Positions 3,894 through 46,790 are shown, counted from the stretch's first letter. The stretch is DNA of 64,000 nucleotides from a bacterium (GCA_043802525.1 JAZDKY010000082.1:15389-79388), one strand, 5' to 3'. A program made the numbers and translations. The notes: generated by a model not told the origin, from the letters alone.

Positions 3894-3953
3894 GAAGAGA
3901 CCGTTTGCCACGACGACGCGGTTTGGCGTATGTTCAATCGACCGGAACATAAC

Positions 3954-27400: not shown

Positions 27401-30400
27401 CTGCCGTGTTTCCCCGCACCAGACAGTTCTGCAATACGCCGTTTCCGGTGAAATAGACCCCACCCCCATAGCTCGGCCCCCAACCCTGCGTATACCGCGC
27501 GAGGTTGTTGGAGGCCATGTTGCTCGCGATAATGCAGTTCCGGATCGTACCCCCCACCACGCTGTATACGCCGCCCCCAAAGCCGTTCGTCGCCAATCCA
27601 TGCGTGATGGTGAACCCATCGACCACCGCGTTCGACCCGCTGAGGTACAGACACCGAACGGCCCCGTTGCCGTCCACGACGGTCTGCTCCGGCCCGTTCA
27701 CGCTTTGAAGCGTGATCGTCTTCGAAATCGTCAGTTGCGCTCCCAGCCGGTAGGTCCCGTTCGTCACCAGCACCACGGCTCCACCCCTCCCGACATCAAT
27801 GGCATTCTGGATGTTCGTGGCCGCCGTCGCCCACGTTGCAAACGGGTAGGTGTGCGAACCTAGCGGCGACACGTAGACGGTCATCTTCGTCGAAACGTAG
27901 TCATCCTTGCGGATCGAGGCGGTTTCACCAGCCGCGTTGGTGACGGATAAGACCACGGAATACAACCCGTCAGGCGCGTAGCCATTCGTAACGACGAGCA
28001 GGTCGTAGCCTTCCCGATCCGTTGTTCCGTCGCCGTCCAGATCCCAGCGACAATACAACCCGGCCATGTTCGTTCCGGCCACATGCGCCGTGAGCCCAAT
28101 ATTCGTCAGGCTCGTGTCGGAAGCGTAAGCGGCGGTGAAATCGCAGACCAGATCACCCGCGACATACTCGTACGCGCCCCGGTCCACAGTCCCGTTCAGG
28201 ATTCGTTCCCGGCCGTCCAAATCGACAGCGCCGGCCATCCAGCCCTGATTCGTGCCGGCGTTCACGCATGAGAACCCATCCATGAGATAGGGCCGGTCGA
28301 TCGACAGGTGGAAATCGCCTGCCGCAAGGTCTACGAAGAGGGGGGCTTCGGCCCGGTTCCCCTCACCCGACAAGAGGGGTGTGGCAGTGCAGTAACTGAA
28401 GCTGCCGACATAATCACGAACATTGGGGTCGGTAACTCCCCCGGATGTGACGTTGTAGAAGATGATCGAGTTGCGTACCTGGCCGCCTTGGGCGTACACC
28501 CCTCCTCCACCTCCGTAGATAGAACCCGTAACGTAGCTCGCGCTGGCGTAGTTGCCGATGATCGTGCAATTCTCGACGATACCGATACTGCCGTATCCGC
28601 ACTCGACGCCCCCGCCGTAGCTCTCGCCATACATCGATGTGGGGTCGGCGACATTGCCGCGGATCAAGCAGCTCCGAAGGATTCCACCGCTTATGTAGAC
28701 TCCGCCACCGCCGCTCCCAATGTAATACTGCGCACAGTGCGCGACATTGCTGACAATGACGCATCGGTCCACCAATCCCTGCGAAAGCAGCACACCGCCG
28801 CCGATTCCCTCGGACGATCGGCCTCGCGTAATCGTGAAGCCTTCGACGACCGCGTTGCTGTGGTTCAGCGAGAAGCAGCGAACGGACTGGTTGCCGTCGA
28901 CGATCGTGGCGGATGGTCCATCGACCCCGCGGACCGCGACACCGTTGGTGATCTCGATCTGGAAAGCAAGGACGTACCGGCCCTGCGCCACCAGAACAAC
29001 GCCCCCGTCCCCGGCCACGGCGATCGCCTCCTGGATCGTGTTGTACGGATGCGCCGGACTGCCGTCTTCGATGCCACTCGTGTTCGCCACATCCACGTAG
29101 AGCGTGGAAGGTCTCGCCTCCACCGTGATCGATACGGTCGCCACGGCGCTGGCCGCCTCACCGTCAGAAACCAGGAAGGCGAAGACGTCGGGACCGGAGT
29201 AGCCGTTCACCGGCATGTACGTCACATTCGGCGCCGTGCCGCTCAACGCGCCGTGCGACGGCTGCACCACAATGTAGTACATCAGCGGATTGTTATCCGC
29301 ATCCGACGCCGTGAGTGTAATCGATTTGGCCGTGTCCTGCAGGGTCGTCACGCTCTGGTTGTTCGCCACCGGTGCATCGTTTACCGCGGTGACCGTTATC
29401 GACACCGTCGCGGAGGCGCTCGCCGTCAAGCCGTCGTTGGCCTGAAACGTAAAACTGTCCGAACCAAAGTAGTTCGCGTTCGGCGTGTACGTCACGTTCG
29501 GCGGCGTACCGCTCAGGACACCATTCGCGGGTGCCGTCATGATCGTGTAGGCCATCGCGTCGGCTTCAATATCCTCGGCCGTCAGCACGATGGCTTTTGC
29601 CGTGTCTTCCGCCGTGGTCACGCTCTGATCGTTCGCCACAGGCGCATCATTCACCGGCGTAACCGTGATCGAAACCGGTGCGACGTTGCCATTGGTCAAG
29701 CCATCGTTGACCCGGAACGTGAAGGTGTCCGAACCAAAGTAGTTCGCGTTCGGCGTGTACGTCACGTTCGGCGGCATACCGCTCAGGACGCCGTTCGCCG
29801 GTTCCGTCATGATCGTGTAGGCCAGCGCGTCGGCGTCAATGTCCGTGGCCGTCAGCACGATGTCTTTTGCCGTGTCTTCCGGCGTGGTCAAGCTCTGGTC
29901 GTTCGCCACAGGCGCATCGTTCACCGGCGCAACCGTGATCGAAACCGTTGCGACGTTGCCGTTGGTCAAGCCGTCGTTGGCCCGGAACGTGAAGCTATCC
30001 GCGCCGTTGTAGTTCGGGTCTGGCATATACGTCACATTCGGCGGCGTGCCGGACAAGGTCCCTTTCGTCGGATTGGTCTCGATGCTGTACGTCAGCGCAT
30101 TGGTTTCGATATCTCGGGCCGTCAGGGTGATGGCCTTCGCAGTGTCTTCCGCTGTAGTTACCGTCTGGTTGCTCGCCACCGGCGGATCGTTCACCGCCGA
30201 CACCGTCATGGTCACGGTGGCTGTGGCGCTGTTGACGATGCCGTCGCTGACGCAGAATTTGAAGGTATCCGTGCCGAAGGTGTTCGCCATAGGCGTGTAG
30301 GTAACGTTCGGCGCCGTTCCGCTCAACGTTCCCTTGGCCGGATTGGCCGTAATCGTGTAGGTCAGCGTATCGCCATCCGGATCGGATGCCATAAGCGCGA

Positions 30401-32541: not shown

Positions 32542-33942
32542 TTAGAAGTGGGTTGGCTCTCTTCTTAGAAGTTGCCCCCGGCCGATCTTCCCGACGAAGT
32601 TCCCGTCCTGCGCCGCGATCTCGCCGCGCACCGTCACCACACTCGGCCGGCCCTTGATCTCCCAGCCCTCGAACGGGTTGTAGTCGAGGTTCATGTGCTG
32701 GTTCTTCTGCGTGATCGTTCCCCTGTAATTCGGATCGAACACGACCAGGTCCGCATCGCTCCCGACCGCGATCGTGCCCTTGCGCGGGAACAGGCCAAAC
32801 AGCTTCGCCGCCGCCGTGCTCGCCGTGTCGACAAACCGGTGCAGGTCGATACGCCCCGCGGCCACGCCGTGCGTGTAGTAGATGGTGATCCGGTCCTCGA
32901 GCGACGGGATCCCGTTCGGGATCTTCGTGAAGTCCCCACGGCCCATTTCCTTCTGCCCCCTGAAATCGAACGGCGCGTGGTCCGTCGCCAGCGTGCTGAC
33001 AAAACCCTGCCGCAATGCGTTCCAGAACACGGTCTGGTTCTTCTTGTCCCGCAGAGGCGGCGACATGATGAACTTCGACCCTTCGAAGTCCGGCAGCTCC
33101 GCGTGGGTCATGTCGAGCGTCAGATACTGGATCAGCGTCTCGACCCAGATCTTCACGCCTCGTTCCTTCGCGCGAAGTGCGGCACGGAGCGATTCCTCAC
33201 AGCTCGTGTGGACGACATACACGTGCGCGTCGTGCAGTTGCGCGAACGTCGCCAGATGGTGCACCCCCTCGGCCTCGACCATCGGCGGCCGGCTCCAGTA
33301 GTGCCATTTCGGATCGGTTTTCTTCTCAGCCAGGAGTTCCTGCTGCCGCTGCGCGACAAGGTCCGCGTTCTCGCAGTGCGCGGTCGTGATGACACCGAGC
33401 GACTTCGCAAGCTTGAGCACCTGGTATAGCTCCTCGTCGGTCACACCGAAGAAATTCTTGTACGCCAGGAATATCTTGAAGCTGCTGATCCCGGCCTTGA
33501 CGATCTCGCGCAGCTCGCCTTCCGCCTTCGCGTCGTAGCGCGGCACGCCCATGTGGAAGGTGAAGTCGCACGCGCTTTTGCCCTCGGCCTTGCCGAGCCA
33601 CAACTCGTAGGACTTGAGCAGCTCATCGCTCCGCGACGGGCAGCACATCTCGATCAGGGTCGTCGTCCCGCCGACCAGCGCCGCCTTGCTCGCACTCTCA
33701 TACGTGTCCTTCGCGTACGTGCCCATGAACGGCAGGTAGATGTGGACGTGCGGGTCAATGAAGCCCGGGAACACATACTTTCCCTTCGCATCGATCACCG
33801 TCGCGCCTGCCCCGCTCCCATCGGGGCCCGGCACCTCTAAATTCACGCCGATTTTCGTGATCTGCTCGCCCTCGCAGAGAAGGTCCGCCTTGCAGCGCGC
33901 GTCGGCGGTAATGATCTCACCGTTCCTGATAAGTAGGGCCAT
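32542..33942 (-). CDS. hydA: dihydropyrimidinase / D-hydantoinase
   Basis: MALLIRNGEIITAD...VFPGFIDPHVHIYLPFMGTYAKDTYESASKAALVGGTTTLIEM is the cyclic amidohydrolase signature. Start at ATG 33942. Confidence 0.9.
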   Translation of the reverse strand: MALLIRNGEIITADARCKADLLCEGEQITKIGVNLEVPGPDGSGAGATVIDAKGKYVFPGFIDPHVHIYLPFMGTYAKDTYESASKAALVGGTTTLIEMCCPSRSDELLKSYELWLGKAEGKSACDFTFHMGVPRYDAKAEGELREIVKAGISSFKIFLAYKNFFGVTDEELYQVLKLAKSLGVITTAHCENADLVAQRQQELLAEKKTDPKWHYWSRPPMVEAEGVHHLATFAQLHDAHVYVVHTSCEESLRAALRAKERGVKIWVETLIQYLTLDMTHAELPDFEGSKFIMSPPLRDKKNQTVFWNALRQGFVSTLATDHAPFDFRGQKEMGRGDFTKIPNGIPSLEDRITIYYTHGVAAGRIDLHRFVDTASTAAAKLFGLFPRKGTIAVGSDADLVVFDPNYRGTITQKNQHMNLDYNPFEGWEIKGRPSVVTVRGEIAAQDGNFVGKIGRGQLLRREPTHF

Positions 33943-33954
33943 GACGCCTCCTTG

Positions 33955-34077
33955 CGAATAACCAAGAACCAATAATCAATAACCAAACCGGGCGGAACGA
34001 CTACTGGTTATTGATGTTTGGTTATTGGTGTTTGGTTATTGGTTATTGGTGTTTGGTGTTTGGTGTTTGGTGTTTGG
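33955..34077. repeat. intercistronic oligo-repeat hairpin (aaccaata units facing ttggttat/ttggtgtt octamer array)
   Basis: The left side cgaataaccaagaaccaataatcaataaccaaacc faces ggttattgatgtttggttattggtgtttggttattggttattggtgtttggtgtttggtgtttgg. The array ends 1 nt before the mmsA stop codon (34078). Confidence 0.75.
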
Positions 34078-35574
34078 CTATTTCTCTTTATGCCAGATAT
34101 CCCCCTCGCCAAATTGGAACCACCGCGTCGTGGTCACTTTCTGGCGCGTGTAAAACATCACACCCTCACGGCCTTGCAGATGCAAGTCGCCAAAAAACGA
34201 ATAGTCCCAGCCGCTGAACGGGAACTGCGCGAGCGGCGCGGGCACGCCGACGTTGATCCCGACCATGCCGGACGTGATGCGGTGCCGGAACTCGCGCGCG
34301 ATCTTGCCCGACTGCGTGTAAATGCACGCGCCGTTCCCGAAGATCGTCTTGTTCGCCATTGCCAGCGCGGCCTCGAAGTCCTCGAACCGCATGACGTTCA
34401 GCACCGGCCCGAACACTTCCTCCTGCGCGATCTTCATCCGTGGCTCCACCCGGTCGACGATCGTGGGACCCAGGTAAAAACCGCCCGGGTGCGACGCCAC
34501 GTTCACGCCGCGACCGTCGACGACGACCTCCGCGCCCTCCTTCGCGGCGCTCTCGACGAGTCCCGCAACCTTGTCGCGGTGCTGCGAACTGATGACCGCG
34601 CCCATCTTCGCTTCGGGATCGCGGTCCGTCGCGCCCACCTTGATGGCCCTGACCGCGTCGGCCAGCGGCGGGATGAGCAGGTTCGCCGCCGTGCCGACCG
34701 TCACCACCGTCGATCCGGCCATGCACCGCTGGCCCGCGCAGCCGAACGCCGCGTCGACCAGGCCCGTGATGGAGTTCGTGATGTCGGCGTCCGGCATGAC
34801 GAACACATAGTTCTTCGCGCCGCCGGCGGCCTGGACCCGCTTGCCGTGCTGGGTCCCGGTCTCGAAGATGTACTTCGCGATCGGCGACGAGCCGACGAAC
34901 GATATCGCGCGGATCTTCGGGTGCTTCAGGATCGCGTCGACGCAGTCCTTGCCGCCGTGCACAACGTTCATGACACCCTTCGGCAGCCCCGCCTCCATGA
35001 AAAGCTCCATCAGCCGGATCGAGGTGAGCGGCACCTTCTCGCTCGGTTTGAGGATAAACGTGTTGCCGCACGCGACCGCCAGCGGGTACATCCACATGGG
35101 GACCAGCGCGGGAAAGTTGTACGGACAAATGCCTGCACACACGCCCAGCGGCTGCTTGATGACGTCACAGTCGATCCCGCGCGCGATGTTCTCGAGGATC
35201 TCGCCTTTCAACAGCTCGGGGATCCCGCACGCGTATTCGACAACTTCAATCCCGCGCCGCACGTCGCCGCGGGCCTCGGTCAGCGTCTTCCCGTGCTCGC
35301 GCGTAACGCTTTTCGCCAGTTCCTCGAAGTGGTCCTCGAGCAGGATCTTGTAACGGAACAGGACGCGACACCGCTCGGCCGGCGGCGTCTCCGACCAGTC
35401 GGCGTACGCCATTGCCGCGGCCTGGGCCGCCGCATCGACGATATCCGCCCCGCACATCGGCGTCTCGGCAATCACTTCGCCGGTGGAAGGATTGTGGACC
35501 TTGGTGGTCGTCGCCGTCTTCGGCGTCGACCATTCACCACCGATGAGAACTGGACAGGGTTGCAGATGACTCAT
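34078..35574 (-). CDS. mmsA: CoA-acylating (methyl)malonate-semialdehyde dehydrogenase
   Basis: MSHLQPCPVLIGGEW...; ALDH fold with AFGCAGQRCMA at the catalytic Cys. Start at ATG 35574. Confidence 0.9.
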   Translation of the reverse strand: MSHLQPCPVLIGGEWSTPKTATTTKVHNPSTGEVIAETPMCGADIVDAAAQAAAMAYADWSETPPAERCRVLFRYKILLEDHFEELAKSVTREHGKTLTEARGDVRRGIEVVEYACGIPELLKGEILENIARGIDCDVIKQPLGVCAGICPYNFPALVPMWMYPLAVACGNTFILKPSEKVPLTSIRLMELFMEAGLPKGVMNVVHGGKDCVDAILKHPKIRAISFVGSSPIAKYIFETGTQHGKRVQAAGGAKNYVFVMPDADITNSITGLVDAAFGCAGQRCMAGSTVVTVGTAANLLIPPLADAVRAIKVGATDRDPEAKMGAVISSQHRDKVAGLVESAAKEGAEVVVDGRGVNVASHPGGFYLGPTIVDRVEPRMKIAQEEVFGPVLNVMRFEDFEAALAMANKTIFGNGACIYTQSGKIAREFRHRITSGMVGINVGVPAPLAQFPFSGWDYSFFGDLHLQGREGVMFYTRQKVTTTRWFQFGEGDIWHKEK

Positions 35575-35591
35575 GCGTTTTCTCTTCAAAT

Positions 35592-35721
35592 CGAATAACC
35601 AATCACCAAACACCAATAACCAAATCCACAACCCAAGCCTTTTGGTTATTGGTTATTGGATATTGGTTATTGGATATTGGTTATTGGTTATTGGATATTG
35701 GTTATTGGTTATTGGTTATTT
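35592..35721. repeat. intercistronic oligo-repeat hairpin (ttggttat/ttggatat octamer array)
   Basis: cgaataaccaatcaccaaacaccaataaccaaatcc faces about 10 tandem ttggttat/ttggatat units. The array ends 1 nt before the preA stop codon (35722). Confidence 0.75.
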
Positions 35722-37032
35722 CTAAGGATGCGCCGGGATCGGCTTCATCTCGCCCTTCGCCATGCGCTCCTGGTATTGCTTCCACGACATCGGCATCTCG
35801 CCCGTCTTCACATCGACCATCGAGATACAGTGGTCGACCGGGCAGACGATCGCGCACAGGTTGCAGCCGACACAGTGCTCCACGTTGACCTGCGGGACAG
35901 GCTTGCCCGGCATGCGTCCGGGGCCCAGGCCCTTGTCGTCCGGGCTGACGAGTTCGATGGCCTGGTGCGCGCCGTCTTCGCAGGCGATATAGCACAGGTT
36001 GCAGCCGATGCATTTCTCGTAGTTGATGTCCGCGACGCATTTGTAGTTGAGGTCGAGGTTCTCCCACTTCTCCACCGACTGTACGGCCTTGCCGGTCCAT
36101 TCCGCCATCGTCCTGTAACCCTTCTCGTCCATAAACAAGTTCATGCCGTCGATCATGTCCTCCACGATCCGAAACCCAAAGTGCATGATCGCCGTGCAGA
36201 CCTGGACGCTCCCCGCGCCGAGCGCGATGAATTCTGCCGCGTCCTTCCACGTCGCGATGCCGCCGATGCCCGAGATCGGGATTCCCACCTCCGGGTCCTC
36301 CGCGCAGGCATGCACCATGTGGAGCGCGATCGGCTTCACCGCCGGCCCGCAGTACCCGCCATGCGTGCTCTTGCCCGCAACGCAGGGCTCGGGGCACATG
36401 CGGTCCAGGTTCACCTGCGTGATGCTGTTGATCGTGTTGATGAGCGAGATCGCGTTCGCGCCCGCCTTCTTCGCCGCCCGCGCGGGCTCCGTTATGTCGG
36501 TGACGTTCGGGGTCAGCTTCACGATGACCGGAATCTCCGCGACCTCCATGACCCAGCCGACGATGGTCTCGATCACGCGCGGGTTCTGGCCGACGGCGGA
36601 ACCCATCCCTCGCTCGCACATGCCGTGCGGGCAGCCGAAGTTCAGCTCGACCCCGTCCGCGCCGCAATCGCGCGAACGCTTCATGTAGTCGTGCCAGTTT
36701 TCGCGCGTGTCCGTCATGAGCGATGCGATGATCGCCCTGTCCGGCCACGCTTTCTTGCACTCGGCAAGCTCGCGGAAGTTCGTCTCGGGCGAGCGGTCAC
36801 TGATCAGTTCAATGTTGTTGAACCCGACCATGCGCTGGCCACCCGCGCCGAGCGCAGAGTACCGCGAGCTCACGTTGACGATGGGATCGCCGATCGTCTT
36901 CCAGACCACACCGCCCCATCCCGCCTCAAACGCGCGGTGGCACTGGTACGCCGTGTTCGACGGCGGCCCGGACGCGACCCAGAACGGATTCGGCGATTTG
37001 ATGCCCGCGAAATTGATCGATAAATCAGCCAT
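35722..37032 (-). CDS. preA: NAD-dependent dihydropyrimidine dehydrogenase, PreA subunit (DHODH-like plus 2x[4Fe-4S])
   Basis: MADLSINFAGIKSPNPFWVASGPP...; C-terminal CIGCNLCYIACEDG and CVGCNLCAIVCPVD ferredoxin motifs. Confidence 0.9.
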   Translation of the reverse strand: MADLSINFAGIKSPNPFWVASGPPSNTAYQCHRAFEAGWGGVVWKTIGDPIVNVSSRYSALGAGGQRMVGFNNIELISDRSPETNFRELAECKKAWPDRAIIASLMTDTRENWHDYMKRSRDCGADGVELNFGCPHGMCERGMGSAVGQNPRVIETIVGWVMEVAEIPVIVKLTPNVTDITEPARAAKKAGANAISLINTINSITQVNLDRMCPEPCVAGKSTHGGYCGPAVKPIALHMVHACAEDPEVGIPISGIGGIATWKDAAEFIALGAGSVQVCTAIMHFGFRIVEDMIDGMNLFMDEKGYRTMAEWTGKAVQSVEKWENLDLNYKCVADINYEKCIGCNLCYIACEDGAHQAIELVSPDDKGLGPGRMPGKPVPQVNVEHCVGCNLCAIVCPVDHCISMVDVKTGEMPMSWKQYQERMAKGEMKPIPAHP

Positions 37033-37043
37033 GTCTCTCTCCC

Positions 37044-37117
37044 ATCGTAATCGTAATCCTAATCGTAATCGTAATCCCCTTTTCGATTACGATTAGGATT
37101 ACGATTAAGATTACGAT
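37044..37117. repeat. intercistronic hairpin built of taatcg/taatcc hexamers
   Basis: The left arm atcgtaatcgtaatcctaatcgtaatcgtaatc faces the right arm gattacgattaggattacgattaagattacg. cgtaatcctaatcgtaatc pairs perfectly (19 bp) with gattacgattaggattacg. The right arm covers the preT stop codon (37111-37113). Confidence 0.8.
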
Positions 37118-38571
37118 TTTTGCTTCTCATAATACTCCGCTTCCAGTTCCGGCACCCTGATCGGATGATCAAACCCTGAGCCCGTCGTCTTCTTCCCCGG
37201 AACGCCGAGCCGCGTCGACTGGACCGGCCCGACCACATCCTCGCCCGTCAGCATCTTGTGAATGCCCCGCGCGGCGCGTTTGCCCTCGGCGACGGCGTTG
37301 ACGACTTCGCGCCCGCCGTTGCATGCGTCGCCGCCGGCGTACACCTTCTCCAGGCTCGTCTTGCCCGTGGCGAAGTCGCGCGCGACTACCCCGTCCGTGC
37401 CGATGTCGAGGCCGGGGAACAGCGCCTGGATCTGCTTCGCCCGCGGCTCCTGCCCGAGCGCCTTGATCACCATGTCGAACGGCTCGACAAACTGGGACCT
37501 CTCGACGACTTCGACACGACCCTGTGCGTCGATCCTTGTCTTCGCGAGCGTCAGGCCCGTGACGTGACGCTTGCCCTCGATCATAACCGGAACGGTGCGG
37601 AACATGAATTCGCACCCGTCCTTCTTCGCGATCTCGTACTCGTACGGATACGCGGGCATGTCCTTCTCCCCGCGACGGTAGATGATCACCGCGCGCTCCG
37701 CGCCGAGCCGCTTCGCCTGCGTCACCGCGTCAATCGCCGTGTTACCGCACCCGATGACGGCAACCTTGGCGCCCACGGGAACCTGGTCGAGCGCCTTCGT
37801 GTGGATCAGCTCGATGAAATCCAGCGCCTCGACCACTTCGGGCAGTTCCTCGCCCGGAATACCCAGCTTGTACGTCCGGCCCAGGCCGACGCCTATGAAG
37901 ACCGCGTCAAAGTCCCTCATGAGCTGCTGCGCGTCCACGTCCTTGCCGACTTCCACGCCGGTCTTGATCTCGACGCCGAGGCTCTTCACCAATTCCACTT
38001 CCTCAAGACTCGCCTGCGGCGTGAGCTTGTAGTAGGCGATACCGTACGTGTTGAGCCCGCCCGCCTGCGGCTTCTTCTCGAAAATCACGGCCTGGTGCCC
38101 GAGCTGCGCCAGCTCGGCCGCGCAGCCGAGGCCGGCCGGGCCGCCACCGATGATGGCAATCTTCTTCCCGGACTTCTCCGCCGGGACGCGCAGCACCTTG
38201 AGCTTGTTTTCAAAAACATGGTCCGTCGCGTACCGCTGGAGCCGCCCGATCTTGATCGGTTTCCGGTCGCGGTCCAGCATCACGCACGCGCCTTCGCACA
38301 GGGCCGATGTCGGACAGACGCGGGCGCAGCTCGCGCCGAGCGGGTTGGCTTTGAGGATGGTCCGGCCCGCGCCGGTCAGGTTGCCGGTCGCGATCTTCTT
38401 GATGAAGGCGGGGATATCGATGCCCGTGGGGCACGCCATGATGCACGGCGCGTCGAAGCAGTACAGGCAGCGGTCCGCCTCGACCTGCGCCTCCTGCGGC
38501 CGGTACTTCGGCTCCATCTCGGCCATGTTGGCGGCGGCCGTCTTCGCATCCAGACGGGGCTTAAGACTCAT
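37111..38571 (-). CDS. preT: NAD-dependent dihydropyrimidine dehydrogenase, PreT subunit (GltD-like)
   Basis: CLYCFDAPCIMACPTGIDIP, CARVCPTSALCEGAC and KKIAIIGGGPAGLGCAAEL match the GltD/PreT architecture. Confidence 0.9.
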   Translation of the reverse strand: MSLKPRLDAKTAAANMAEMEPKYRPQEAQVEADRCLYCFDAPCIMACPTGIDIPAFIKKIATGNLTGAGRTILKANPLGASCARVCPTSALCEGACVMLDRDRKPIKIGRLQRYATDHVFENKLKVLRVPAEKSGKKIAIIGGGPAGLGCAAELAQLGHQAVIFEKKPQAGGLNTYGIAYYKLTPQASLEEVELVKSLGVEIKTGVEVGKDVDAQQLMRDFDAVFIGVGLGRTYKLGIPGEELPEVVEALDFIELIHTKALDQVPVGAKVAVIGCGNTAIDAVTQAKRLGAERAVIIYRRGEKDMPAYPYEYEIAKKDGCEFMFRTVPVMIEGKRHVTGLTLAKTRIDAQGRVEVVERSQFVEPFDMVIKALGQEPRAKQIQALFPGLDIGTDGVVARDFATGKTSLEKVYAGGDACNGGREVVNAVAEGKRAARGIHKMLTGEDVVGPVQSTRLGVPGKKTTGSGFDHPIRVPELEAEYYEKQKS

Positions 38572-38585
38572 ACTCGGTTCCTTTA

Positions 38586-38659
38586 TTAACCACGGAGGAC
38601 ACGGAGGAACACGGAGGGAATTCCGGATTCAGAAATCCTCCGTGAACCTCCGCGGTTAA
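38586..38659. repeat. intercistronic palindromic repeat of the cacggagg family
   Basis: ttaaccacggaggacacggaggaacacggagggaattccggattcagaaatcctccgtgaacctccgcggttaa. The terminal ttaa includes the ald stop codon (38656-38658). Relatives lie at 43261-43372, 46618-46713 and 49327-49359. Confidence 0.8.
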
Positions 38660-39756
38660 AATTTCTGCTCCGAAAAAGGCATCCCATGCGCCTCCGCTAC
38701 TGCTTTATAGGTGACGTGCCCGTTGTGCGTGTTCAGGCCCGGGCGCAGTTCCGGGACCTGTTGAAGCGCGCCTTCGAATCCGAGGTTCGCGAGCTTCAAC
38801 GCGTACGGGATCGTCGCGTTGGTCAACGCCTGCGTCGCAGTCCGCGCATACGCGCCGGGCATGTTGGTCACGCAGTAATGGATCGTGTCCTCTTCGACGT
38901 AGATCGGGGTTTCGTGCGTCGTCGGCCGCGACGTCTCGGCGCAGCCGCCCTGGTCGATCGCGATGTCGACGAAGACCGTGCCGGGCTTCGTCACGCGCAG
39001 CATCTCGCGTTTGATCAACTTCGGCGCCCTGGCCCCGGGCACCAGTACCGCCCCGATCAGCAGGTCGACATTCGGGAGCATGTCCATCAGGTTCTGCTCG
39101 TTCGAGTACAGCGTATGCGCCGCGCCGTGCAGGCTGATGTCAAGGAACCGCATCTGCTCGAGATCGACCTCAAGGATCGTCACCTCCGCGCCCATGCCCG
39201 CCGCGACCCGTCCGGCGTTAATGCCCGCCGTGCCCCCTCCTATGATAAGGACATGGCCCGGCAGCACGCCCGGCACGCCGCCGAGCAACACGCCCTTCCC
39301 ACCCTGCGCCTTGCTCAGATAGTACGCGCCAACAATGGCACTCATGCGGCCCGCGATCTCGCTCATCGGCTCGAGGAGCGGCAAACGACGCCCTATCTGC
39401 ACGGTCTCGTACGCGATGCCCGTCGTCTTCGACGCCACCAGCGTCTCGGTCAGCTCTTTCGCCGCCGCGAGGTGGAGATAGGTGAAAAGGAGCAGTCCGG
39501 GACGGAGGAACGAGTACTCCGCCTCCATCGGTTCCTTGACCTTGAGCACCATGTCCGCACCCCACGCATCGGCCGCCGCCGGCACGATCCGCGCGCCCGA
39601 CTGCTCGAACTGCTCGTCGTGAAATCCGCTGCCTTCCCCCGCACCCTTCTGCACCAGCACCTCGTGCCCACCGTGGACCAGCATCCTCGCCCCGGCCGGG
39701 GTACACGCGACGCGGTTCTCTTTGACCTTGATCTCTTTGGGGACGCCGATTTTCAT
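38656..39756 (-). CDS. ald: alanine dehydrogenase
   Basis: [45 protein letters not shown]...[28 protein letters not shown]. Start at ATG 39756. Confidence 0.92.
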
Positions 39757-39769
39757 ATGGGGAGGAGAA

Positions 39770-39838
39770 ATGGAGTGTTGGAGTATTGGAGTGATGGGAA
39801 GATTCCCCACAACACTCCATCACTCCACCGCTCCATCA
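39770..39838. repeat. intercistronic hairpin built of ggagtg-type units
   Basis: atggagtgttggagtattggagtgatgg faces ccacaacactccatcactccaccgctccatcac. The right arm covers the transaminase stop codon (39836-39838). Confidence 0.7.
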
Positions 39839-41182
39839 CCCCGCTTCTCCTAATGCCGCATCCAACACATCCAACGCAAACTCCACATCCGCCTCCGTGA
39901 AACACATCGGCGGCGTGCAGCGCAGCACGTTGCCGAACAACCCGCCTTTGCCGATGAGCAACCCGAGGTCCTTCGTCTTTTCGAAAATCGCTGCACACGC
40001 TTCCTTCGCGGGCTCTTTGGTCTTCCGGTCCTTCACCAGTTCCAGCGCCACCATCAGCCCTTTGCCTCGAACATCTCCAACGATTGGAAATTTATCTCTC
40101 AATTTTTCCAATCCTTGGAAAAATTGTGCGCCGAGGTCGAGGCACCGCTTCTGGTAGCCGTCGCGGTCGATGATCTTGAGCACCTCATGCCCAATCGCGC
40201 AGGACACCGGGTTGCCGCCGAAGGTGTTGAAGTGGATTTTCTGCGTGAGCGTCGCCGCGATCTTCGGCGTCGTCACGACCGCGGCCAGCGGCGCGCCGTT
40301 GCCGATGCTCTTCGCCATCGTCACGATGTCCGGGATCACGCCCTGCGTCTCAAAGCCCCAGTAGTGCGTGCCTGTACGGCCGAACCCGGTCTGCACCTCG
40401 TCAGCAATGCAGAGCCCGCCCGCGTCGTGCACGTGTTTATACGCCTCCTGCAGGTAGCCGTCCGGGAACACGATCACGCCGCCGACACCCTGGATCGACT
40501 CGGCGAAAAAGCCCGCAATCTTGCCCGGCGTCGCGAACCGGATCAGGTCCTGGACGTCCCACGCGTAGTTCTTCCCCGCGTCCCCGTCGTCGTACCCGTG
40601 CGGGCCACGGTAGCGGTCCGGCGCCAGCGCGTGGTGGACGCCGAAGCTGTGCGGGACGTTGAATTTCCACGTGTTGTGCGCGGTCAGGCCCATGGTCGAC
40701 GCGATCCCGCCGTGGTACGCGTTGCGGAGCGCGATCACGTCGTAGTTTCCCGTGTAGAGCCGCGCCATCAGGATCGCGAGGTCGTTCGCCTCCGACCCGG
40801 AATTGACGAAGTAACAGACCTTGAGATCGCCCGGCATCTTCGCCGCCAGCGCCTTCGCGTAGTCCGTAATGACCGGGTTCAGGTAGATCGTCGTCGTGTG
40901 CGAAATCTTGTTGATCTGCTCCGTCGCCGCGCGGACCGTGTCCGGGTGCGCGTGGCCCACGCTGACCGTGACGATGCCACCAAAGCCGTCGACGTAACGC
41001 CGCCCGTTCTGGTCCCACACGTACTGCATCGACCCCTCCACGATCATGATCGGGTTCTTGTAGTAGAGGAACAGCCCCGGGTTCAGGAACTGCTTCCGCA
41101 TCGCGAGCACCTCGTCGATCGAGGGCCCTTTGTACGGCGCGGGTTTGTGATCACAAGGTGGAAGTGTCGGTGTCCTGCTCAT
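39836..41182 (-). CDS. class-III aminotransferase, AGXT2-like (beta-alanine/beta-aminoisobutyrate:pyruvate type)
   Basis: [40 protein letters not shown]...[11 protein letters not shown]...[14 protein letters not shown]...TMAKSIGNG. Context is the pyrimidine catabolism cluster. Confidence 0.88.
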
Positions 41183-41183
41183 A

Positions 41184-41260
41184 AATCCTAATCGTAATCC
41201 TAATCGTAATCGTAATCCTAATCGTAATCGTAATCCTAATCGTAATCGTAATCGTAATCG
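41184..41260. repeat. tandem array of about 12 taatcg/taatcc hexamers in the operon 5' region
   Basis: aatcctaatcgtaatcctaatcgtaatcgtaatcctaatcgtaatcgtaatcctaatcgtaatcgtaatcgtaatcg uses the same hexamers as the hairpin at 37044-37117. I saw no inverted partner here. Confidence 0.8.
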
Positions 41261-41946
41261 AACGGGCCCTTGCCCGGCGGCGGTTTCGTCGAAACCGCCC
41301 TACCTCATTTGCGATGGGTATCCACCTATTAACATGTACTACGCGACGACGAATCCGGTGAACCAGGCGCATTCGTCAGCGACGTTTGACTTTCGTCACG
41401 AACTGGTAGGGCGTGCGGTCCCCGCCCCAGGCGGGCAAGCCCCGCGCGCCGCAGAGACGACATTCAAAACCGACCCCTACCGAAGGGCCGCGTCCATGGT
41501 GCAACCGACACGGCAAAAGTATACACAACAGGGGCTTACGGCGGTTGAGAAATGTGAGCCCAAAATTCAGGGATCTCAGGAGTTGCCCACAGATTTCACA
41601 GATGAACACGGATGAAGGGTCGAGGTCACGACGATGTCCGCGATTTCCCCCGCCTCCGCCATCCATCCGAATCTGTGAAATCTGTGGGCAACTCTTTCTT
41701 TGCCTGACCTGCGTAGCCTTGGCGAAGCGGGTTGCCTCTTGTGCCTCTTCGTGGCTATCCCATCGGCCCTGATGTTCGCCACAAAGACGCACAAGAAAGC
41801 TCCGCCCCTATGGCACTTCCGAGGCGGGTTTTAGGGGCGGCGGGATTTTGGTGCTTCTCGTGGCCAACTCTTCCTTCTTCGCCTGACCTGCGTAGCCTCG
41901 GCGAAGCGGGTTGCCTCTTGTGCCTCTTCGTGGCTATCCTTTCGGT

Positions 41947-43212
41947 ATGACCGCTCCCGATCCTTCCCTGGAAGCAAGCGCGGCCCGCGTCATCGCCGAC
42001 CTGCGCGAACTGGCCGCCCTTACCTCCGACGAAAACGGCGCCCAGCGCGTAGCCTGGGGCCCGGTCTGGCGCAAAGCCCGGCAATGGTTCGCGGGCAAGG
42101 TCAAATCCGACCTCGGCCTGACCGTCGAAACCGACTCCGCCGGCAACAACTGGGTGACCCTCCCCGGCACGTCCGATGCGACGGTCATCGTCGGCAGCCA
42201 CCTTGATTCCGTCCCGAACGGCGGCTGGCTCGACGGCTGCCTCGGCGTCCTCGCCGGACTCGAAGCCCTGCGGCGGTACAGCGAACAGAAGGACAAACCC
42301 GTCACGATGAAGCTCTGCGACTGGGCCGACGAAGAAGGCGCGCGCTTCGGCCGCAGCCTGATGGGCTCATCCGCCGCCGCCGGCAGCCTGAAACTCGACG
42401 ACATCCGGAACCTCGTCGATCGACAAGGCGTGAAGCTCCCCGACGCACTGAAGGAAAACGGCGTCGACATCGACACCATGCTGAACGCGCACAAGGAATT
42501 GAAGAAGATCAACGCCAAGGCGTACCTCGAGCTGCACATCGAACAGGGCCCGGTGCTCGAAGCGATGAACAAACCGACCGGCGTTGTGCTCGGCACCTTC
42601 GGTGTCGAACGCCACATGGTGAAATTCACCGGCCAGGCCGCCCACTCCGGATCGACCCCGATCCCGATGCGGAAAGACGCGTTCCTCGCCGCCGCGCAAT
42701 TCGCGTTGGAAGTGCGTCAAATCGGCCTGAAACACAGCAAGCCCGGCGCGAATGTCGTCTGCACGTGTGGTGTGGTGAAAGTAGAACCCTGCATCGTGAC
42801 GGCGGTGCCCGGCGTCTGCGAAATCAGCATCGACCAGCGTGCCCTACGCGCCGAGGTTCTGGCCTCGATGTTGGCAGACGCCAAAGAAGCCGCCCTACGC
42901 GCCGGGATGGACAACAACGTCAAAATGGAGTGGAAGAAAATCTGGACCATCGAGCCAAGGCCCTTCGACCCGAAGCTGATCAAACTCTGCGAAGAAGCGG
43001 TGCGGGAGATAACCGGCGACGCCCCCAAACTCCCCAGTGGTCCGCTGCACGACTCAGCGGAGATGGTGCCGGACATGCCGGTCGTGATGATGTTCGCGTA
43101 TTCAGCGAGAGGCCTGAGCCACTGCAAAGAGGAAGACACCCCGGAAAGCCATCTCAGCCTGACCACCCAAGCATTCCTCCGCCTCGCCGAAAAAACCACC
43201 TCAGCCTCCTGA
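41947..43212 (+). CDS. M20-family Zn amidohydrolase (N-carbamoyl-beta-alanine/beta-ureidopropionase-type, AmaB/allantoate amidohydrolase family)
   Basis: VIVGSHLDSVPNGGWLDGCLGVLAGLEALR, WADEEGARFG and FTGQAAHSGSTP. Start at ATG 41947 (MTAPDPSLEAS). The upstream part of ORF 41911.. is repeat DNA. Confidence 0.85.
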   Translation: MTAPDPSLEASAARVIADLRELAALTSDENGAQRVAWGPVWRKARQWFAGKVKSDLGLTVETDSAGNNWVTLPGTSDATVIVGSHLDSVPNGGWLDGCLGVLAGLEALRRYSEQKDKPVTMKLCDWADEEGARFGRSLMGSSAAAGSLKLDDIRNLVDRQGVKLPDALKENGVDIDTMLNAHKELKKINAKAYLELHIEQGPVLEAMNKPTGVVLGTFGVERHMVKFTGQAAHSGSTPIPMRKDAFLAAAQFALEVRQIGLKHSKPGANVVCTCGVVKVEPCIVTAVPGVCEISIDQRALRAEVLASMLADAKEAALRAGMDNNVKMEWKKIWTIEPRPFDPKLIKLCEEAVREITGDAPKLPSGPLHDSAEMVPDMPVVMMFAYSARGLSHCKEEDTPESHLSLTTQAFLRLAEKTTSAS

Positions 43213-43260
43213 TTATCAGGCGTTCGGTCCCGAAAATCGTGGGCAAGCAGGACGGGGGGC

Positions 43261-43372
43261 GGAATTCTAACCACGGAGGGCACGGAGGTTCGGAGGAGGT
43301 ACGCGGAGGTTTTGCCGAATTCTCCTTTCCCACCCTCCGTGAACCTCCGCGTCCTCCGTGGTTCAAAATCGG
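43261..43372. repeat. ~110-nt imperfect palindrome of the cacggagg family; left boundary of the low-GC islet
   Basis: ggaattctaaccacggagggcacggaggttcggaggaggtacgcggagg...ccctccgtgaacctccgcgtcctccgtggttcaaaatc. Confidence 0.75.
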
Positions 43373-43521
43373 AAGTCGGCGAGCCGTCCCTTCCTTCCGT
43401 GCATTCCATGCTTGCCGCGGCATGGCCTTGGGCGAAGCTGGATTTTCCGCGGTTGAATTTCCGAAACGGACATGAACGCGCCGCTATGGTCAACCCGCAC
43501 CGCATGTGTTAGCGTCCAAGC

Positions 43522-43878
43522 ATGATCCGCGATCCGAATGACGAGGAAGTTCCCTGGAAGGTGACCGAGGAGAAGGTCGCCGAAGCGGTAAAGACGATCG
43601 CGCACGCTGCAAATCCCGTTAAGATTTTTGTATTCGGGTCATATGTCCGCGGGTCTCACGGACGCAGCAGCGATCTCGACATGCTGGTTGTCCTTCGTGA
43701 AGAGCCTGGAAGTCCACGCGCCGAAAGCATTCGCCTTCGTGACGCGGTGAGCCATGTTCGGATGCCGATGGACATATTCGTTGTGTCGGATAACCGTCTG
43801 CGAGAGCTGTCTGAGCGTCCCGGCCTGATCTATCGCGAAATTCTCAGGAGCGGAAGGGTCGTTTATGCCGCCGGATAG
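43522..43878 (+). CDS. MNT-type nucleotidyltransferase (antitoxin-like partner of HEPN)
   Basis: IFVFGSYVRGSHGRSSDLDMLVV is the GS..RG...SD.D Pol-beta-fold NTase motif. 118 aa. Confidence 0.85.
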   Translation: MIRDPNDEEVPWKVTEEKVAEAVKTIAHAANPVKIFVFGSYVRGSHGRSSDLDMLVVLREEPGSPRAESIRLRDAVSHVRMPMDIFVVSDNRLRELSERPGLIYREILRSGRVVYAAG

Positions 43879-44020
43879 GCCCGATCCCGATTCAGCCAAA
43901 GAGTGGCTCGCCTATGCGGAGGGCGATCTTGCACTGGCTAAAGCCGGACGCGGACACAGAGAAAGCCTTGGCCACAGCCACCCGCGTCATTTCATGGGCT
44001 CGGAACAACACCAAGAGTGA
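43865..44020 (+). pseudogene. truncated HEPN-domain gene (51 codons)
   Basis: Own translation: MPPDRPDPDSAKEWLAYAEGDLALAKAGRGHRESLGHSHPRHFMGSEQHQE*. The start overlaps the MNT stop by 14 nt, as in MNT-HEPN operons. The helix AKEWLAYAEGDLALAKA is HEPN-like, but the ORF stops long before any R..H motif. It is below the ORF-track length cut-off. Confidence 0.45.
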
Positions 44021-44283
44021 AAAGTAAAAGTGCGACCCCCTACGACCCGGGGAGCACATCTCCCGCTTGGTGATCTTCGGAACCTTGCCCGACACCCGCC
44101 GCCGCAAGCCCTTGTCCATGCGAGTTTTAGGGCTTAACTAAGCGCCATTCAGACCTGACCCGAATAGCGTACGGCCTGCAAGCGGTCGGAATTGGTTGTT
44201 TCTCAGTGCAACTTTTTGGTGCTACGATGCGCTCACGGTCCGACCCGAATGATGCTAACGTTCGGCACACGAAGGCACAGAAT

Positions 44284-44865
44284 ATGTCAAAGATAATTCA
44301 CTTGTGGACTACTCTTCTTTTGCATTTGCCTGTGTTCCTGAGCAGCGATGTGAAAGCGGATGAATATTTGTGTCAAACAACCACTCCAATCTACGATACG
44401 AACAATCGAATCGTTGGCTCAATCGAGTCTGGAGCTGTCATAAGAGCCACGCGCAACCGATCAATGCCGGGCAAATGGCTGTTACTTGATGATGCTGAGA
44501 GCGCAACGTATGTAGATGGTGAGCGTTTTATCACAACCGAGCAAATGGAGGCACAACTCCAGAAACAATTGATCATACCTCACGTGAGATCTTGGGACCC
44601 AATTCACGGGAAAAAGTTCAGCGCGAAATTGATTGGCACAGCATACGGGCAAGTCCTCTTGCAGGATAAAGGAGGAGACTACCGGATGATGTCCTTCGGG
44701 AAGTTTCGAAAATGGGACCAGGACTACATCAACCGGTACCAAGAGCAGCTTTCCGAAGAGCAGCAAGCCGAAGTGATTAACCACATTGTTTTTCTGGAGC
44801 AGAAGCGAAAGAATCAAGAACTAGAGGCGCTTCGCGGTGAAGTCGACCGACTCAAACGCCCATAA
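44284..44865 (+). CDS. secreted SHD1-domain protein with C-terminal coiled coil
   Basis: ATG 44284 gives MSKIIHLWTTLLLHLPVFLSSDVKA (signal peptide). RSWDPIHGKKFSAKLIGTAYGQVLLQDKGGDYRMMSFGKFRKWDQDYINRY fits the SLA1-homology-domain-1 pattern (R.W.D..G..f.A.l.g...g.V.L...). Confidence 0.6.
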   Translation: MSKIIHLWTTLLLHLPVFLSSDVKADEYLCQTTTPIYDTNNRIVGSIESGAVIRATRNRSMPGKWLLLDDAESATYVDGERFITTEQMEAQLQKQLIIPHVRSWDPIHGKKFSAKLIGTAYGQVLLQDKGGDYRMMSFGKFRKWDQDYINRYQEQLSEEQQAEVINHIVFLEQKRKNQELEALRGEVDRLKRP

Positions 44866-45000
44866 ATACCATGCCACGATAGAACCGACTTGGGAGCATC
44901 GTGTGCCGAACAACCATGAGATTGCAGTACGGCGTATCTGGCTCGGTTTCAGACATGAACATCAGACGCCGCCTGTGAAGCTGGTCGTGCGGCCTACAAG

Positions 45001-45717
45001 ATGAAGAATGATGTCATAAAATCTCTGGCTTACTACATAGAGGCAGTACAGACATTTGCCTCGTATGAGCGCGATATCCTCTTTCGCGGACAGAACGTAG
45101 ACAAGCCTCTTCTGCCAAGAATAGCGCGATACAGACGCCCTCAATATTCGCTCAAAGGCGAAAGACGTTTGATCGAGGAGTTTTCTCGAAAAAGCGTTGG
45201 ATTAGTGGAACCAATGGTGCGCGACAAATGGGACTGGTTGGCACTGGCACAGCATCACGGATTACCCACACGGCTCCTCGACTGGACACAAAATGCTTTG
45301 GCAGCTCTCTGGTTCGCAATCCAACGCCCGATAGATACTGGCTTTTCACCCGTCGTTTGGATGTTCATGCCTCGACCTGATGCCTGTGTCGACCTGAGCA
45401 CGGTGCCAGACCCTTTCTTGGGCAACCGGACGATGATATACAGACCACGCCACTCGACACGAAGAATAACGGCTCAAGCGGGGCTGTTCACTGTTCACAA
45501 ATACATTGAAGACGAAAAACGATTCATCGTTCTTGAGAATCAAAAGCGATACAGGGGTCGGCTAAAGCGACACAGGATTGACAAAGCATACGCGAGGGGC
45601 CCGCTTCCAATGGAGCTCGACAGATGTGGGATAAACGCATCGATGCTGTTTCCTGATCTCGATGGATTAAGCTCATACCTGGAGTGGGAGTACACGCAGG
45701 TAGACAAGTACAGGTAG
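45001..45717 (+). CDS. FRG-domain protein (function unknown)
   Basis: ILFRGQNVDKPLLPRI plus WDWLALAQHHGLPTRLLDWTQNALAALWFA plus RITAQAGLFTV plus GINASMLFPDLDGL are the signature blocks of the FRG domain (PF08867). Confidence 0.8.
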   Translation: MKNDVIKSLAYYIEAVQTFASYERDILFRGQNVDKPLLPRIARYRRPQYSLKGERRLIEEFSRKSVGLVEPMVRDKWDWLALAQHHGLPTRLLDWTQNALAALWFAIQRPIDTGFSPVVWMFMPRPDACVDLSTVPDPFLGNRTMIYRPRHSTRRITAQAGLFTVHKYIEDEKRFIVLENQKRYRGRLKRHRIDKAYARGPLPMELDRCGINASMLFPDLDGLSSYLEWEYTQVDKYR

Positions 45718-45812
45718 GCCGAGCTTGCAGAGGACTGGGTCACTCGGGCAGGCTTCCCACACATGGTCGAAACCCCAGCTTCTGAAGCTCGGCGTCGGTC
45801 GCGGAGCAATTA

Positions 45813-46331
45813 ATGATTCATATAATCGGTCTCAATCATCGATATCAGTTTGAAGGCCCCGGAAATGATTGGGAGACGTTTTACGCTTTCCTTACACAGC
45901 ACGCCCTCACCCTTCACCCTGACCTACTTGCTGAGGAGCTCGACGAGGAATGCATTCTTAATGACGGTGCGCGAAACTCTGTGGCGCGAAGAGTGGCAAC
46001 AGAACAGGCCGCTCGGCATCTGTTTGTCGATCCTGACACGGAGGAAAGACGCCGTTGCGGCATCAAGGGATATCGGGAAATAGCTCTCGATCTAGGATAT
46101 GGATGTGTCTTGACTCGCGAACAGGACGCGCATGTAAAGAAAATTGAAAAACGCCACTGGGACAAACGCGAACGAATCTGGCTAGCAAGGCTTGCACTTG
46201 TCCGCCATGACCGATGCATCATGATCATAGGCGCAAATCATGTTGCCAGGTTCAGTCGCAAGTTGAGCCGACTCAGTATCGCCTCATTGATACTGGAGTC
46301 TGATTTTGGCACATCGCCGCTCAAGTCATGA
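45813..46331 (+). CDS. TraB/PrgY/TIKI-like (EreA/ChaN superfamily) protein, minimal 172-aa form
   Basis: N-terminal HIIGLNH (GxxH-like), LLAEELDEE (acidic strand), WDKRERIWLARL (RE(R/D)..M..L-like) and IMIIGANHVARF (second GxxH) follow the motif order of the TraB/TIKI fold. Assignment by motif only. Confidence 0.55.
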   Translation: MIHIIGLNHRYQFEGPGNDWETFYAFLTQHALTLHPDLLAEELDEECILNDGARNSVARRVATEQAARHLFVDPDTEERRRCGIKGYREIALDLGYGCVLTREQDAHVKKIEKRHWDKRERIWLARLALVRHDRCIMIIGANHVARFSRKLSRLSIASLILESDFGTSPLKS

Positions 46332-46396
46332 ACTTTGTCCGTCCGCGTGTCCGTCCGGGGTCTCCGTCCGGGGTCGGACCTCGCTAAGTCACTGAA

Positions 46397-46615
46397 GTGC
46401 AATCGATAAGGCTCTGTTTCGGCGCCGAAAATGCGGACATGGGTCGATTTCCGGGGCCGAAAAAGAGGTGTAACGGCCGGCGGCAGGACAGGAAGGAGCG
46501 CGATGCGTTCGTGGACGAGGTCATGCAGGCGTCCGGCATCCCCATCCTCCACTTCCCCGCCAGCCGCGCGTACACCGTCGAGATCGCTCGTAAGGCGCTG
46601 TTCGCGGAATCCTGA
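46397..46615 (+). pseudogene. C-terminal fragment of a DUF2726-like (restriction-endonuclease-fold) gene
   Basis: ...RRQDRKERDAFVDEVMQASGIPILHFPASRAYTVEIARKALF resembles the conserved DUF2726 C-terminus (RD.FV...L..AGIPLLRF). No upstream catalytic part is present. Confidence 0.35.
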
Positions 46616-46617
46616 GG

Positions 46618-46713
46618 GGAATTCTAACCGCAGAGGTCGCCGAGGTACGCAGAGGTTCTGTCCTGATTCCATCCCACCCTCCGCGTACCTCCGCGACCTC
46701 CGTGGTTCGAATC
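46618..46713. repeat. ~95-nt imperfect palindrome of the cacggagg family; right boundary of the low-GC islet, same orientation as 43261-43372
   Basis: ggaattctaaccgcagaggtcgccgaggtacgcagagg...ccctccgcgtacctccgcgacctccgtggttcgaatc. Confidence 0.75.
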
Positions 46714-46733
46714 CGCTCTTTCTGCATCCGGGC

Positions 46734-46764
46734 ACAAAAAATGCGCCCCGATTTCTCGGGGCGC
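46734..46764 (-). terminator. rho-independent terminator of RRM gene 1
   Basis: 9-bp stem gcgccccga/tcggggcgc with a 4-nt loop, followed on the minus strand by a T6 run (plus-strand A-run 46736-46741). It lies 27 nt after the stop codon. Confidence 0.8.
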
Positions 46765-46790
46765 AGATCCTTTACAGCTGCAGGGTCGGT

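Follow-up and report, generated by a model that had tools for sequence, protein, structure and literature searches.

Why should a conserved enzyme gene with a marked preference for codons ending in G or C give up that preference over a short internal patch, and why should this patch hold a pair of palindromes that returns, at the same spacing, at two other sites? The question is raised by a stretch of bacterial DNA of 64,000 nt (hereafter the window, the only 64 kb of the source genome that we analysed), where the patch lies within a class-III aminotransferase gene of the beta-alanine / 3-aminoisobutyrate:pyruvate type (39836-41182, minus strand; the transaminase gene). An earlier note on this DNA had suggested that the palindromes might be paired operators for a dimeric protein on one DNA face, or else an RNA hairpin. 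We find that they belong to a family of helically phased arrays interspersed in the genomes of Kiritimatiellia, and that the features of this family point to binding sites for a dimeric protein.

Palindrome pairs in the window and the transaminase gene

The earlier note had listed six palindromes in three pairs, here called arrays A, B and C, and each lies where it was described, with a centre-to-centre distance of 31 bp in all three arrays. In array B, within the transaminase gene, palindrome B1 (tcTCCAACGATTGGAAA, 40074-40090; core CCAACGATTGG, 40077-40087; centre 40082) corresponds to ttt cca atc gtt gga ga (F P I V G D) on the minus strand. Palindrome B2 (CAATTTTTCCAA-TCC-TTGGAAAAATTG, 40100-40126; core CCAATCCTTGG, 40108-40118; centre 40113) is a perfect 12+3+12 palindrome with the minus-strand codons caa ttt ttc caa gga ttg gaa aaa ttg (Q F F Q G L E K L). 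The central part of the spacer between them (40091-40099) is non-palindromic and unusually AT-rich, with the rare minus-strand codons aaa gat aga. Array A consists of A1 (TTTCCAGTCATTGGAAG, 7402-7418; core CCAGTCATTGG, 7405-7415; centre 7410), which is degenerate with one core mismatch (CCAG), and A2 (AATCCAATGATTGGAAA, 7433-7449; core CCAATGATTGG, 7436-7446; centre 7441). Array C consists of C1 (ccGCCAATCCTTGGAAA, 63787-63803; core CCAATCCTTGG, 63790-63800; centre 63795) and C2 (CATCCAATCGTTGGAAA, 63818-63834; core CCAATCGTTGG, 63821-63831; centre 63826). The exact core pattern CCAANNNTTGG occurs five times in the window against 0.66 expected, is confined to these three loci (the sixth palindrome being the mismatched A1) and reached five copies in none of 100 shuffles; the extended motif in the window is TCCAANNNTTGGAAA. 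The palindromes are thus real, and chance is excluded.

The transaminase gene heads an operon for reductive pyrimidine catabolism and is followed by ald, preT, preA and the genes for an aldehyde dehydrogenase and a dihydropyrimidinase. A look-up of the window's transaminase gave no exact record. Its patch covers 23 codons at 40061-40129 (minus strand), slightly offset from the span of 40072-40135 first assigned to it, and has a GC content at third codon positions (GC3) of 0.22 (5/23 codons) against 0.85-0.86 for the gene, which bears out the described switch to A/T-ending codons. In 80 metagenomic orthologues (66-74% identity) the patch is also 23 amino acids long, is written in ordinary codons and lacks the motif. 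Since its length is the same in the window and in these orthologues, the patch is not an insertion, and a mobile-element insertion into the transaminase gene is ruled out.

Relatives of the window differ in whether they carry the array. In loci L201 and L203 (90-92% identity, by measure) both sites are present 31 bp apart in degraded form, with two mismatches each (patch codons ctt tta cag gga ttg gaa aaa ... aaa tat cca atc gtt gga gac). In L204 (76% identity) two perfect CCAAnnnTTGG cores, CCAAGGGTTGG and CCAATCATTGG, stand 31 bp apart on the same codons as in the window (ctc caa ggg ttg gaa ... tat cca atc att gga gac). The Kiritimatiellia orthologues L205 (75%) and L206 (73%) have GC-rich patch codons and no site.

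Where the sites are present, the codons around them remain unusual. A/T-ending codons are concentrated in the patch of L201 (11/19 against 39/429 elsewhere; p = 4e-7) and of L204 (9/19 against 50/428 elsewhere; p = 2e-4), an enrichment not seen in the patch of L205 or L206. Synonymous codon identity between the window and L204 is 0.62, close to the codon-bias baseline of 0.58-0.59, so the retained rare codons do not merely reflect shared ancestry. The suggestion that synonymous sites are constrained at the nucleic-acid level is supported to this extent, but amino acids have changed too. Relative to the relatives' LLQGLEKLKAKYPIVGD, the window carries L>F, L>F, Y>F, K>R and A>D, of which the three changes to F (L>F, L>F and Y>F) make the palindromes complete, while K>R (aga) and A>D (gat) turn the spacer AT-rich. 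The encoded peptide had been called typical of its family; this is true of GDVRGK, which is conserved, but not of FFQ, R, D and F, which are derived with respect to the close relatives. As copies occur at homologous positions in relatives and differ by point changes, we infer that the transaminase array is old in its clade and evolves through point substitutions at homologous positions. The same comparisons indicate that DNA-level selection has long maintained the array, which was sharpened in the window's lineage, at a cost in codon usage and in five amino acids.

Phased arrays across Kiritimatiellia

A scan of 596 Gb of collected genomes for CCAANNNTTGGAA-N15-19-CCAANNNTTGGAA, for which we estimate about 5 chance matches, gives at least 120 loci, essentially all of them in Kiritimatiellia-type metagenome-assembled genomes (MAGs) with a GC content of 49-75%. 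Among the matches listed, record titles name Kiritimatiellia, Kiritimatiellales or Tichowtungia, or are generic (Lentisphaerae, Verrucomicrobiota or uncultured); we use the taxon labels given in the records, and the taxonomic range of the arrays is a lower bound. The best named homologues of the window also come from Kiritimatiellia (70-75% identity). Full-text literature searches for the motif sequence, or pairing Kiritimatiell* with the vocabulary of binding sites, gave no description, and the element is apparently undescribed in the literature.

The family motif, (T)TTTCCAA-tSa-TTGGAAA(A), is a palindrome of 17-19 bp. In a logo of 98 pairs (a-TTTT-CCAA-t-S-a-TTGG-AAAA-t) the centre base is only C or G (0.44 / 0.56) and never A or T, and the spacer positions carry almost no information. 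Positions -6 and -7 are T in 97% of cases and, since this left TT was not imposed by the search, the palindrome is genuine. Arrays hold two palindromes in 120 cases, three in 29, four in 11 and five to seven in 7. Neighbouring palindromes in related loci lie 31 bp (120), 32 bp (103), 42 bp (4) or 21-22 bp (9) apart. Distances that are independent of the search fall at 21-22 (9), 31-33 (40), 42 (4), 52 (1), 61-62 (3) and 72 bp (1), with only four other values up to 75 bp. These distances follow a period of about 10.5 bp, so that the sites fall on the same side of the B-DNA helix. Control DNA (498 kb of orthologous transaminase loci from other lineages) contains 13 single near-sites and no pairs. 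An origin by chance or as an artefact of codon bias is ruled out by the shuffles, the codon test on orthologues and this pair-free control.

Positional conservation was checked at two of the three window sites, arrays A and B; the loci matched by the scan offered too few syntenic pairs for a comparison of orthologues among themselves. Array A is not in a promoter region but lies between convergent genes, a GH71-like gene (6229-7374, plus strand) and pdxB (7497-8642, minus strand). In L229, a relative with a PdxB 85% identical, the matching convergent intergenic region has a perfect pair, TTCCAATGATTGGAA and TTCCAATCATTGGAA, 31 bp apart; its flanks are unrelated to those of the window, and its spacer shares only TTTCGCG with array A. 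In L231 (69%) the convergent intergenic region after pdxB has no array. The window's array A is further enclosed by a 22-nt inverted repeat of 95% identity (7377-7398 / 7460-7481; GTGTCGGGTGTCGAGTG...), which is local and without parallel around arrays elsewhere, and the enclosing hairpin is predicted at -60 kcal/mol. L229 has a different hairpin, beside the array rather than enclosing it. Array C is found some 160 bp upstream of a gene for a PAS/GAF histidine kinase (60706-63627, minus strand). There is also a weak single site (TTTTCAATCCTTGGACA, 63629-63645), whose centre is 158 bp (~15 helical turns) from that of C1 and which adjoins an 18-nt inverted repeat (63648-63665 / 63768-63785).

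With gene contexts taken from a self-trained, home-made codon-usage gene caller, arrays fall in tandem (66), convergent (18) and divergent (18) intergenic regions, inside genes (24) and at gene edges (19). An array is carried by 16% of tandem, 21% of convergent and 29% of divergent regions, and the arrays are without orientation preference. Censuses of 99 downstream genes, of 84 genes flanking arrays of at least three sites and of neighbours in low-density genomes show no enriched Pfam family and no common theme, which speaks against both a specific regulon and a binder gene adjacent to the arrays. Array density, corrected for ascertainment, ranges from ~0 to 1.5 per 10 kb between MAGs and is 0.47 per 10 kb in the window.

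About 14% of arrays lie inside called genes, several of which are confirmed as Pfam-covered; they include NadE (in the interdomain linker), MnmE (two arrays), AroB, SufB, a radical-SAM enzyme and others. Such copies encode FQxLEK, FPx[ILV]GK or S[NK]xWK according to the frame, and GC3 drops locally in every case. In the window, FQGLEK is followed by FPIVGD because sites 31 bp apart differ by one in frame.

True arrays are also found in about nine GC-rich IMG/VR contigs, which are either phages sharing the host motif or host DNA. Some of these arrays have three or four sites (L224 657-760 and 14365-14459; L220 3436-3498; L222 6062-6093 and 10398-10429), and some occupy tiny intergenic gaps in co-directional runs of phage genes. 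PHROG and Pfam annotation of the small genes adjoining the viral-contig arrays was uninformative. The pattern further matches AT-rich viral contigs with CCAATGnTTGGAAA repeats of 15- or 30-bp period (L208 5271-5317, L210 8507-8552, L218 10617-10647). These look like coding repeats (e.g. NPMFGK) or chance matches, unrelated to the Kiritimatiellia arrays.

Possible roles of the arrays

Across 406 sites, 89 stem pairs deviate from the consensus palindrome, and only 4 of these changes are compensatory, with 29 G-U compatible and 56 non-pairing; it is thus the sequence that is conserved and not its pairing. Together with the motif, its phasing, its distribution and its positional conservation, this covariation-free conservation argues for phased binding sites of a dimeric protein that would oligomerise along one DNA face. 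We hold this reading to be rather probable, and binding, oligomeric state and role are described here in that conditional sense. The dimeric protein of the earlier note fits the helical-turn spacing, the true palindrome and the conservation of sequence rather than pairing. Each palindrome would be the site of a homodimer of a putative sequence-specific DNA-binding protein, with half-site centres ~11 bp apart in adjacent major grooves. Dimers on neighbouring palindromes would share one helix face three turns apart (31-32 bp; rarely two or four turns) and may join into a tetramer, or into a longer oligomer where an array has 3-7 sites. The DNA would probably be kinked at the central T-S-A, which always has a flexible TG/CA step. 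As the arrays ignore gene orientation and function, a nucleoid-associated or global factor is likelier than a pathway regulator, and the protein may act genome-wide on architecture, supercoiling or the insulation of transcription.

A wider proposal, which we regard as possible and advance tentatively, is a lineage-specific chromatin or insulator system, in which a putative oligomeric protein would polymerise on phased arrays across the chromosome and phages. Such a protein could possibly be an NrdR-like or Lrp-like oligomer recruited genome-wide, and selection would be strong enough to write arrays into essential coding sequences, altering protein sequence.

Several observations weigh against the binding of such a dimeric protein. 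No candidate binder gene recurs beside arrays in the censuses of neighbouring genes, viral contigs included, and the gene contexts depend on the home-made caller. The spread in array density is unusual for an essential architectural system. Samples of ~21 kb from two Kiritimatiellia-labelled MAGs contain no array, and neither does a ~21 kb sample of the cultured Pontiella desulfatans, a result that is not informative. In addition, near-identical spacers in some arrays (e.g. L045 and L092) show that tandem duplication contributes to array growth, and duplication could alone fix a period.

Among known systems, NrdR-box pairs, the operators bound in a nucleotide-dependent manner by the ribonucleotide-reductase repressor NrdR (Zn-ribbon plus ATP-cone), are the closest in architecture, although the Kiritimatiellia arrays are not members of this group. 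NrdR boxes are 16 bp long with a linker of 15-16 bp (centres 31-32 bp apart), 25-26 bp being tolerated, and a tetramer kinks each box (PMC12051234, PMC13584703). The boxes are AT-rich palindromes with a non-conserved linker, sometimes in groups of three or four (PMC12051234, PMC13584703, PMC9110341). The Kiritimatiellia palindromes likewise lie three turns apart, tolerate four turns (31-32 and 42 bp) and have a linker that is not conserved, and the half-sites are similar in flavour (C-w-A-t in NrdR, C-A-A-t in the arrays). However, the NrdR box has an even centre (A8 T9) with conserved C4, A6, A8, T9, T11 and G13, whereas the Kiritimatiellia palindrome is odd, with a single central C/G, CCAA/TTGG and outer TTT/AAA, so that its half-sites are 1 bp closer than those of NrdR. 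NrdR boxes also stand in the promoters of nrd (or nrdR) operons, whereas the Kiritimatiellia arrays occur anywhere, at tens to hundreds per genome, and none of the window's three is near a ribonucleotide reductase (RNR) gene. The Kiritimatiellia loci examined contain no canonical NrdR box pair and gave no tblastn match to nrdR, the latter with an approximate E. coli NrdR query that is uninformative for whole genomes. An identity with NrdR boxes is thus rejected, as the geometry agrees but box structure and RNR-promoter context do not.

Other regulators share parts of this geometry. Lrp/AsnC proteins bind as dimers to 13-17 bp palindromes with an AT-rich centre, act cooperatively at ~30-32 bp and wrap DNA around an octamer, while NtrC sites are 7-N3-7 palindromes 32 bp apart. 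Lrp/AsnC, Fis and NtrC have global or nucleoid-associated roles and many sites, some inside genes. By analogy in geometry alone, the Kiritimatiellia arrays would resemble them in their three-turn arrangement. Their consensus sequences differ and are far more degenerate, and no Lrp-type gene is linked to the Kiritimatiellia arrays.

The alternative that survives best, although we consider it unlikely, is a selfish or domesticated repeat akin to repetitive extragenic palindromes (REPs) and bacterial interspersed mosaic elements (BIMEs), spread by a transposase or by gene conversion, where 31-32 bp would be the length of a tandem unit. REP/BIME elements, known from enterobacteria and pseudomonads and built on palindromes of 20-40 bp, are bound by host proteins (gyrase, IHF). 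Like these elements, the Kiritimatiellia palindromes are interspersed and mostly intergenic, cluster with set linker lengths, occur in every orientation class and also just after stop codons. The near-identical spacers of some arrays, the very uneven density between genomes and the copies in GC-rich viral contigs agree with such an origin as well. REPs are GC-rich imperfect hairpins with GTAG/CGTC tags and conserved linkers, are associated with a RAYT transposase and are strictly extragenic (PMC3733652). The Kiritimatiellia palindromes are instead AT-rich, near-perfect, without a GTAG/CGTC-type tag and helically phased, and some lie in coding sequence. Their spacers are generally unrelated though the palindromes are near-invariant, and the 21-22 and 42 bp spacings fit helical turns and not a fixed unit. 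No terminal inverted or enclosing repeats surround the arrays, the local one at site A excepted, and the transaminase copy is not inserted, differing from orthologous copies by point changes at homologous positions. The Y1-transposase family is absent among the 25 most frequent neighbour families of the arrays. Since tandem duplication clearly contributes to some arrays, a selfish component is nonetheless possible.

A miniature inverted-repeat transposable element was considered and rejected: except at site A, the inverted repeats of the flanks are no better than those of shuffled flanks, and the spacer body is not conserved. Two further kinds of genome-wide element invite comparison, since they too are DNA motifs tolerated in and shaping coding sequence. 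Rickettsia palindromic elements are insertions of 100-150 bp that add residues, whereas the transaminase patch adds none; DNA uptake sequences and uptake signal sequences (DUS/USS) are non-palindromic, unphased single sites, unlike the palindromic and phased arrays.

That the palindrome or the pair acts in RNA, as a transcript hairpin serving as terminator, attenuator, processing site or stabiliser, is very unlikely in our judgement. Many arrays do follow a stop codon by 2-30 nt or occupy short gaps of co-directional runs, phage late genes included, and A-tract/T-tract flanks accompany some copies (L016). Arrays A and B also fold better than shuffled sequences (z = -8.6 and -4.1), the value at A being due to its local 22-nt flanking inverted repeat. 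Site C, however, folds like its shuffles (z = -0.6 and -0.2), and compensatory changes are outnumbered by disruptive ones (4 against 56). Complementary centre triplets are not favoured (neighbouring palindromes have the same triplet in 70 pairs, the reverse complement in 52 and a different one in 87). The stems are weak and AT-rich, the 10.5-bp quantisation has no RNA rationale, and arrays are carried at least as often by divergent regions as by tandem or convergent ones and occur inside genes too. A terminator scan of 39600-40400 gives a single match, at 40128-40145 (minus strand), which lies beside the array, off the palindromes, and is at shuffle level (1 found against 0.8 expected). A known RNA family is ruled out by the same covariation counts and by Rfam, which gives no match at the gathering threshold in the window and, in array-rich loci at E <= 1, only spurious sub-threshold matches.

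Equally hard to sustain, and if anything more improbable, is a local operator, through which a pathway-specific regulator would control an internal ald-preTA promoter, or the operon would be attenuated, from within the transaminase gene. Array B is kept at the same position of the operon down to 76% identity, is the only array in the relatives' 10-21 kb loci and lies ~320 bp upstream of ald, all of which would suit such a role. The motif adjoins unrelated genes everywhere, as between the convergent GH71-like gene and pdxB, and the local operator of the earlier note thus gives way to a class-wide interspersed family without a regulon theme. Moreover, a consensus scan finds no sigma-70-like promoter in 39600-40400, and the orthologous operons of Kiritimatiellia at 73-75% identity are without the site.

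Scarcely credible, finally, is a promoter-like reading, in which one palindrome's right half and the following palindrome's left half, 17-18 bp apart (TTGGAA-N17/18-TCCAAT; 4/6 matches per hexamer), would mimic -35 and -10 elements and make the arrays bidirectional promoters or RNA-polymerase sinks. The -10-like hexamer has no A at its critical position 2, the consensus scan reports no promoter, arrays also lie in convergent intergenic regions and inside genes, and no promoter would accommodate spacings of 21-22 and 42 bp.

Neighbouring features and biological meaning

The window holds a complete reductive pyrimidine-catabolism cluster (32542-43212), with an M20 amidohydrolase gene on the plus strand and, on the minus strand, genes for the aminotransferase, alanine dehydrogenase, PreT, PreA, aldehyde dehydrogenase and dihydropyrimidinase; the gene order is conserved in L201 and L204-L206. 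These relatives have a cytosine/purine/uracil permease gene between their divergent M20 amidohydrolase and transaminase genes (L201 8405-9880, L204 1511-2989, L205 8486-9991, L206 8499-10004). The window lacks this gene, with no remnant found by tblastn, and has a repeat-rich spacer of 764 bp in its place (41183-41946), which contains a 74-nt direct repeat (41693-41766 / 41872-41945, 93%) and a 48-nt inverted repeat (41567-41614 / 41660-41707). A tandem repeat of the hexamer AATCGT/AATCCT, with 12.8 copies and an 18-bp super-period (41184-41260), directly adjoins the transaminase start codon on its upstream side.

A low-GC island (43213-46790; GC 0.51 against ~0.62), skipped by the codon-usage gene caller, contains three plus-strand open reading frames (ORFs) at 44206-44865, 45001-45717 (FRG domain) and 45813-46331 and was possibly acquired horizontally. 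Three giant minus-strand ORFs (9844-17238, 2464 aa; 18988-23019, 1343 aa; 24429-31352, 2307 aa) are weakly similar (28-47%) to large proteins in the Kiritimatiellia loci L012, L040, L093 and L102. L040, which is from a Kiritimatiellia-type MAG, also has a cobalamin riboswitch at 3894-4101 (Rfam RF00174, 69 bits).

Kiritimatiellia are a widespread group that degrades sulfated polysaccharides and, to our knowledge, almost nothing is known of their gene regulation and chromosome organisation. The near-invariant phased palindrome offers a direct experimental handle, for example as bait in a pull-down of its binder, and the roughly hundred-fold variation in array density between lineages makes it a genome-wide marker for phylogenetic profiling. 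Annotators should be aware that a local AT-rich patch of rare codons need not mark foreign DNA or a sequencing error in these genomes. The transaminase patch itself provides a clear case of DNA-level selection overriding both codon usage and the choice of amino acids in a conserved enzyme.

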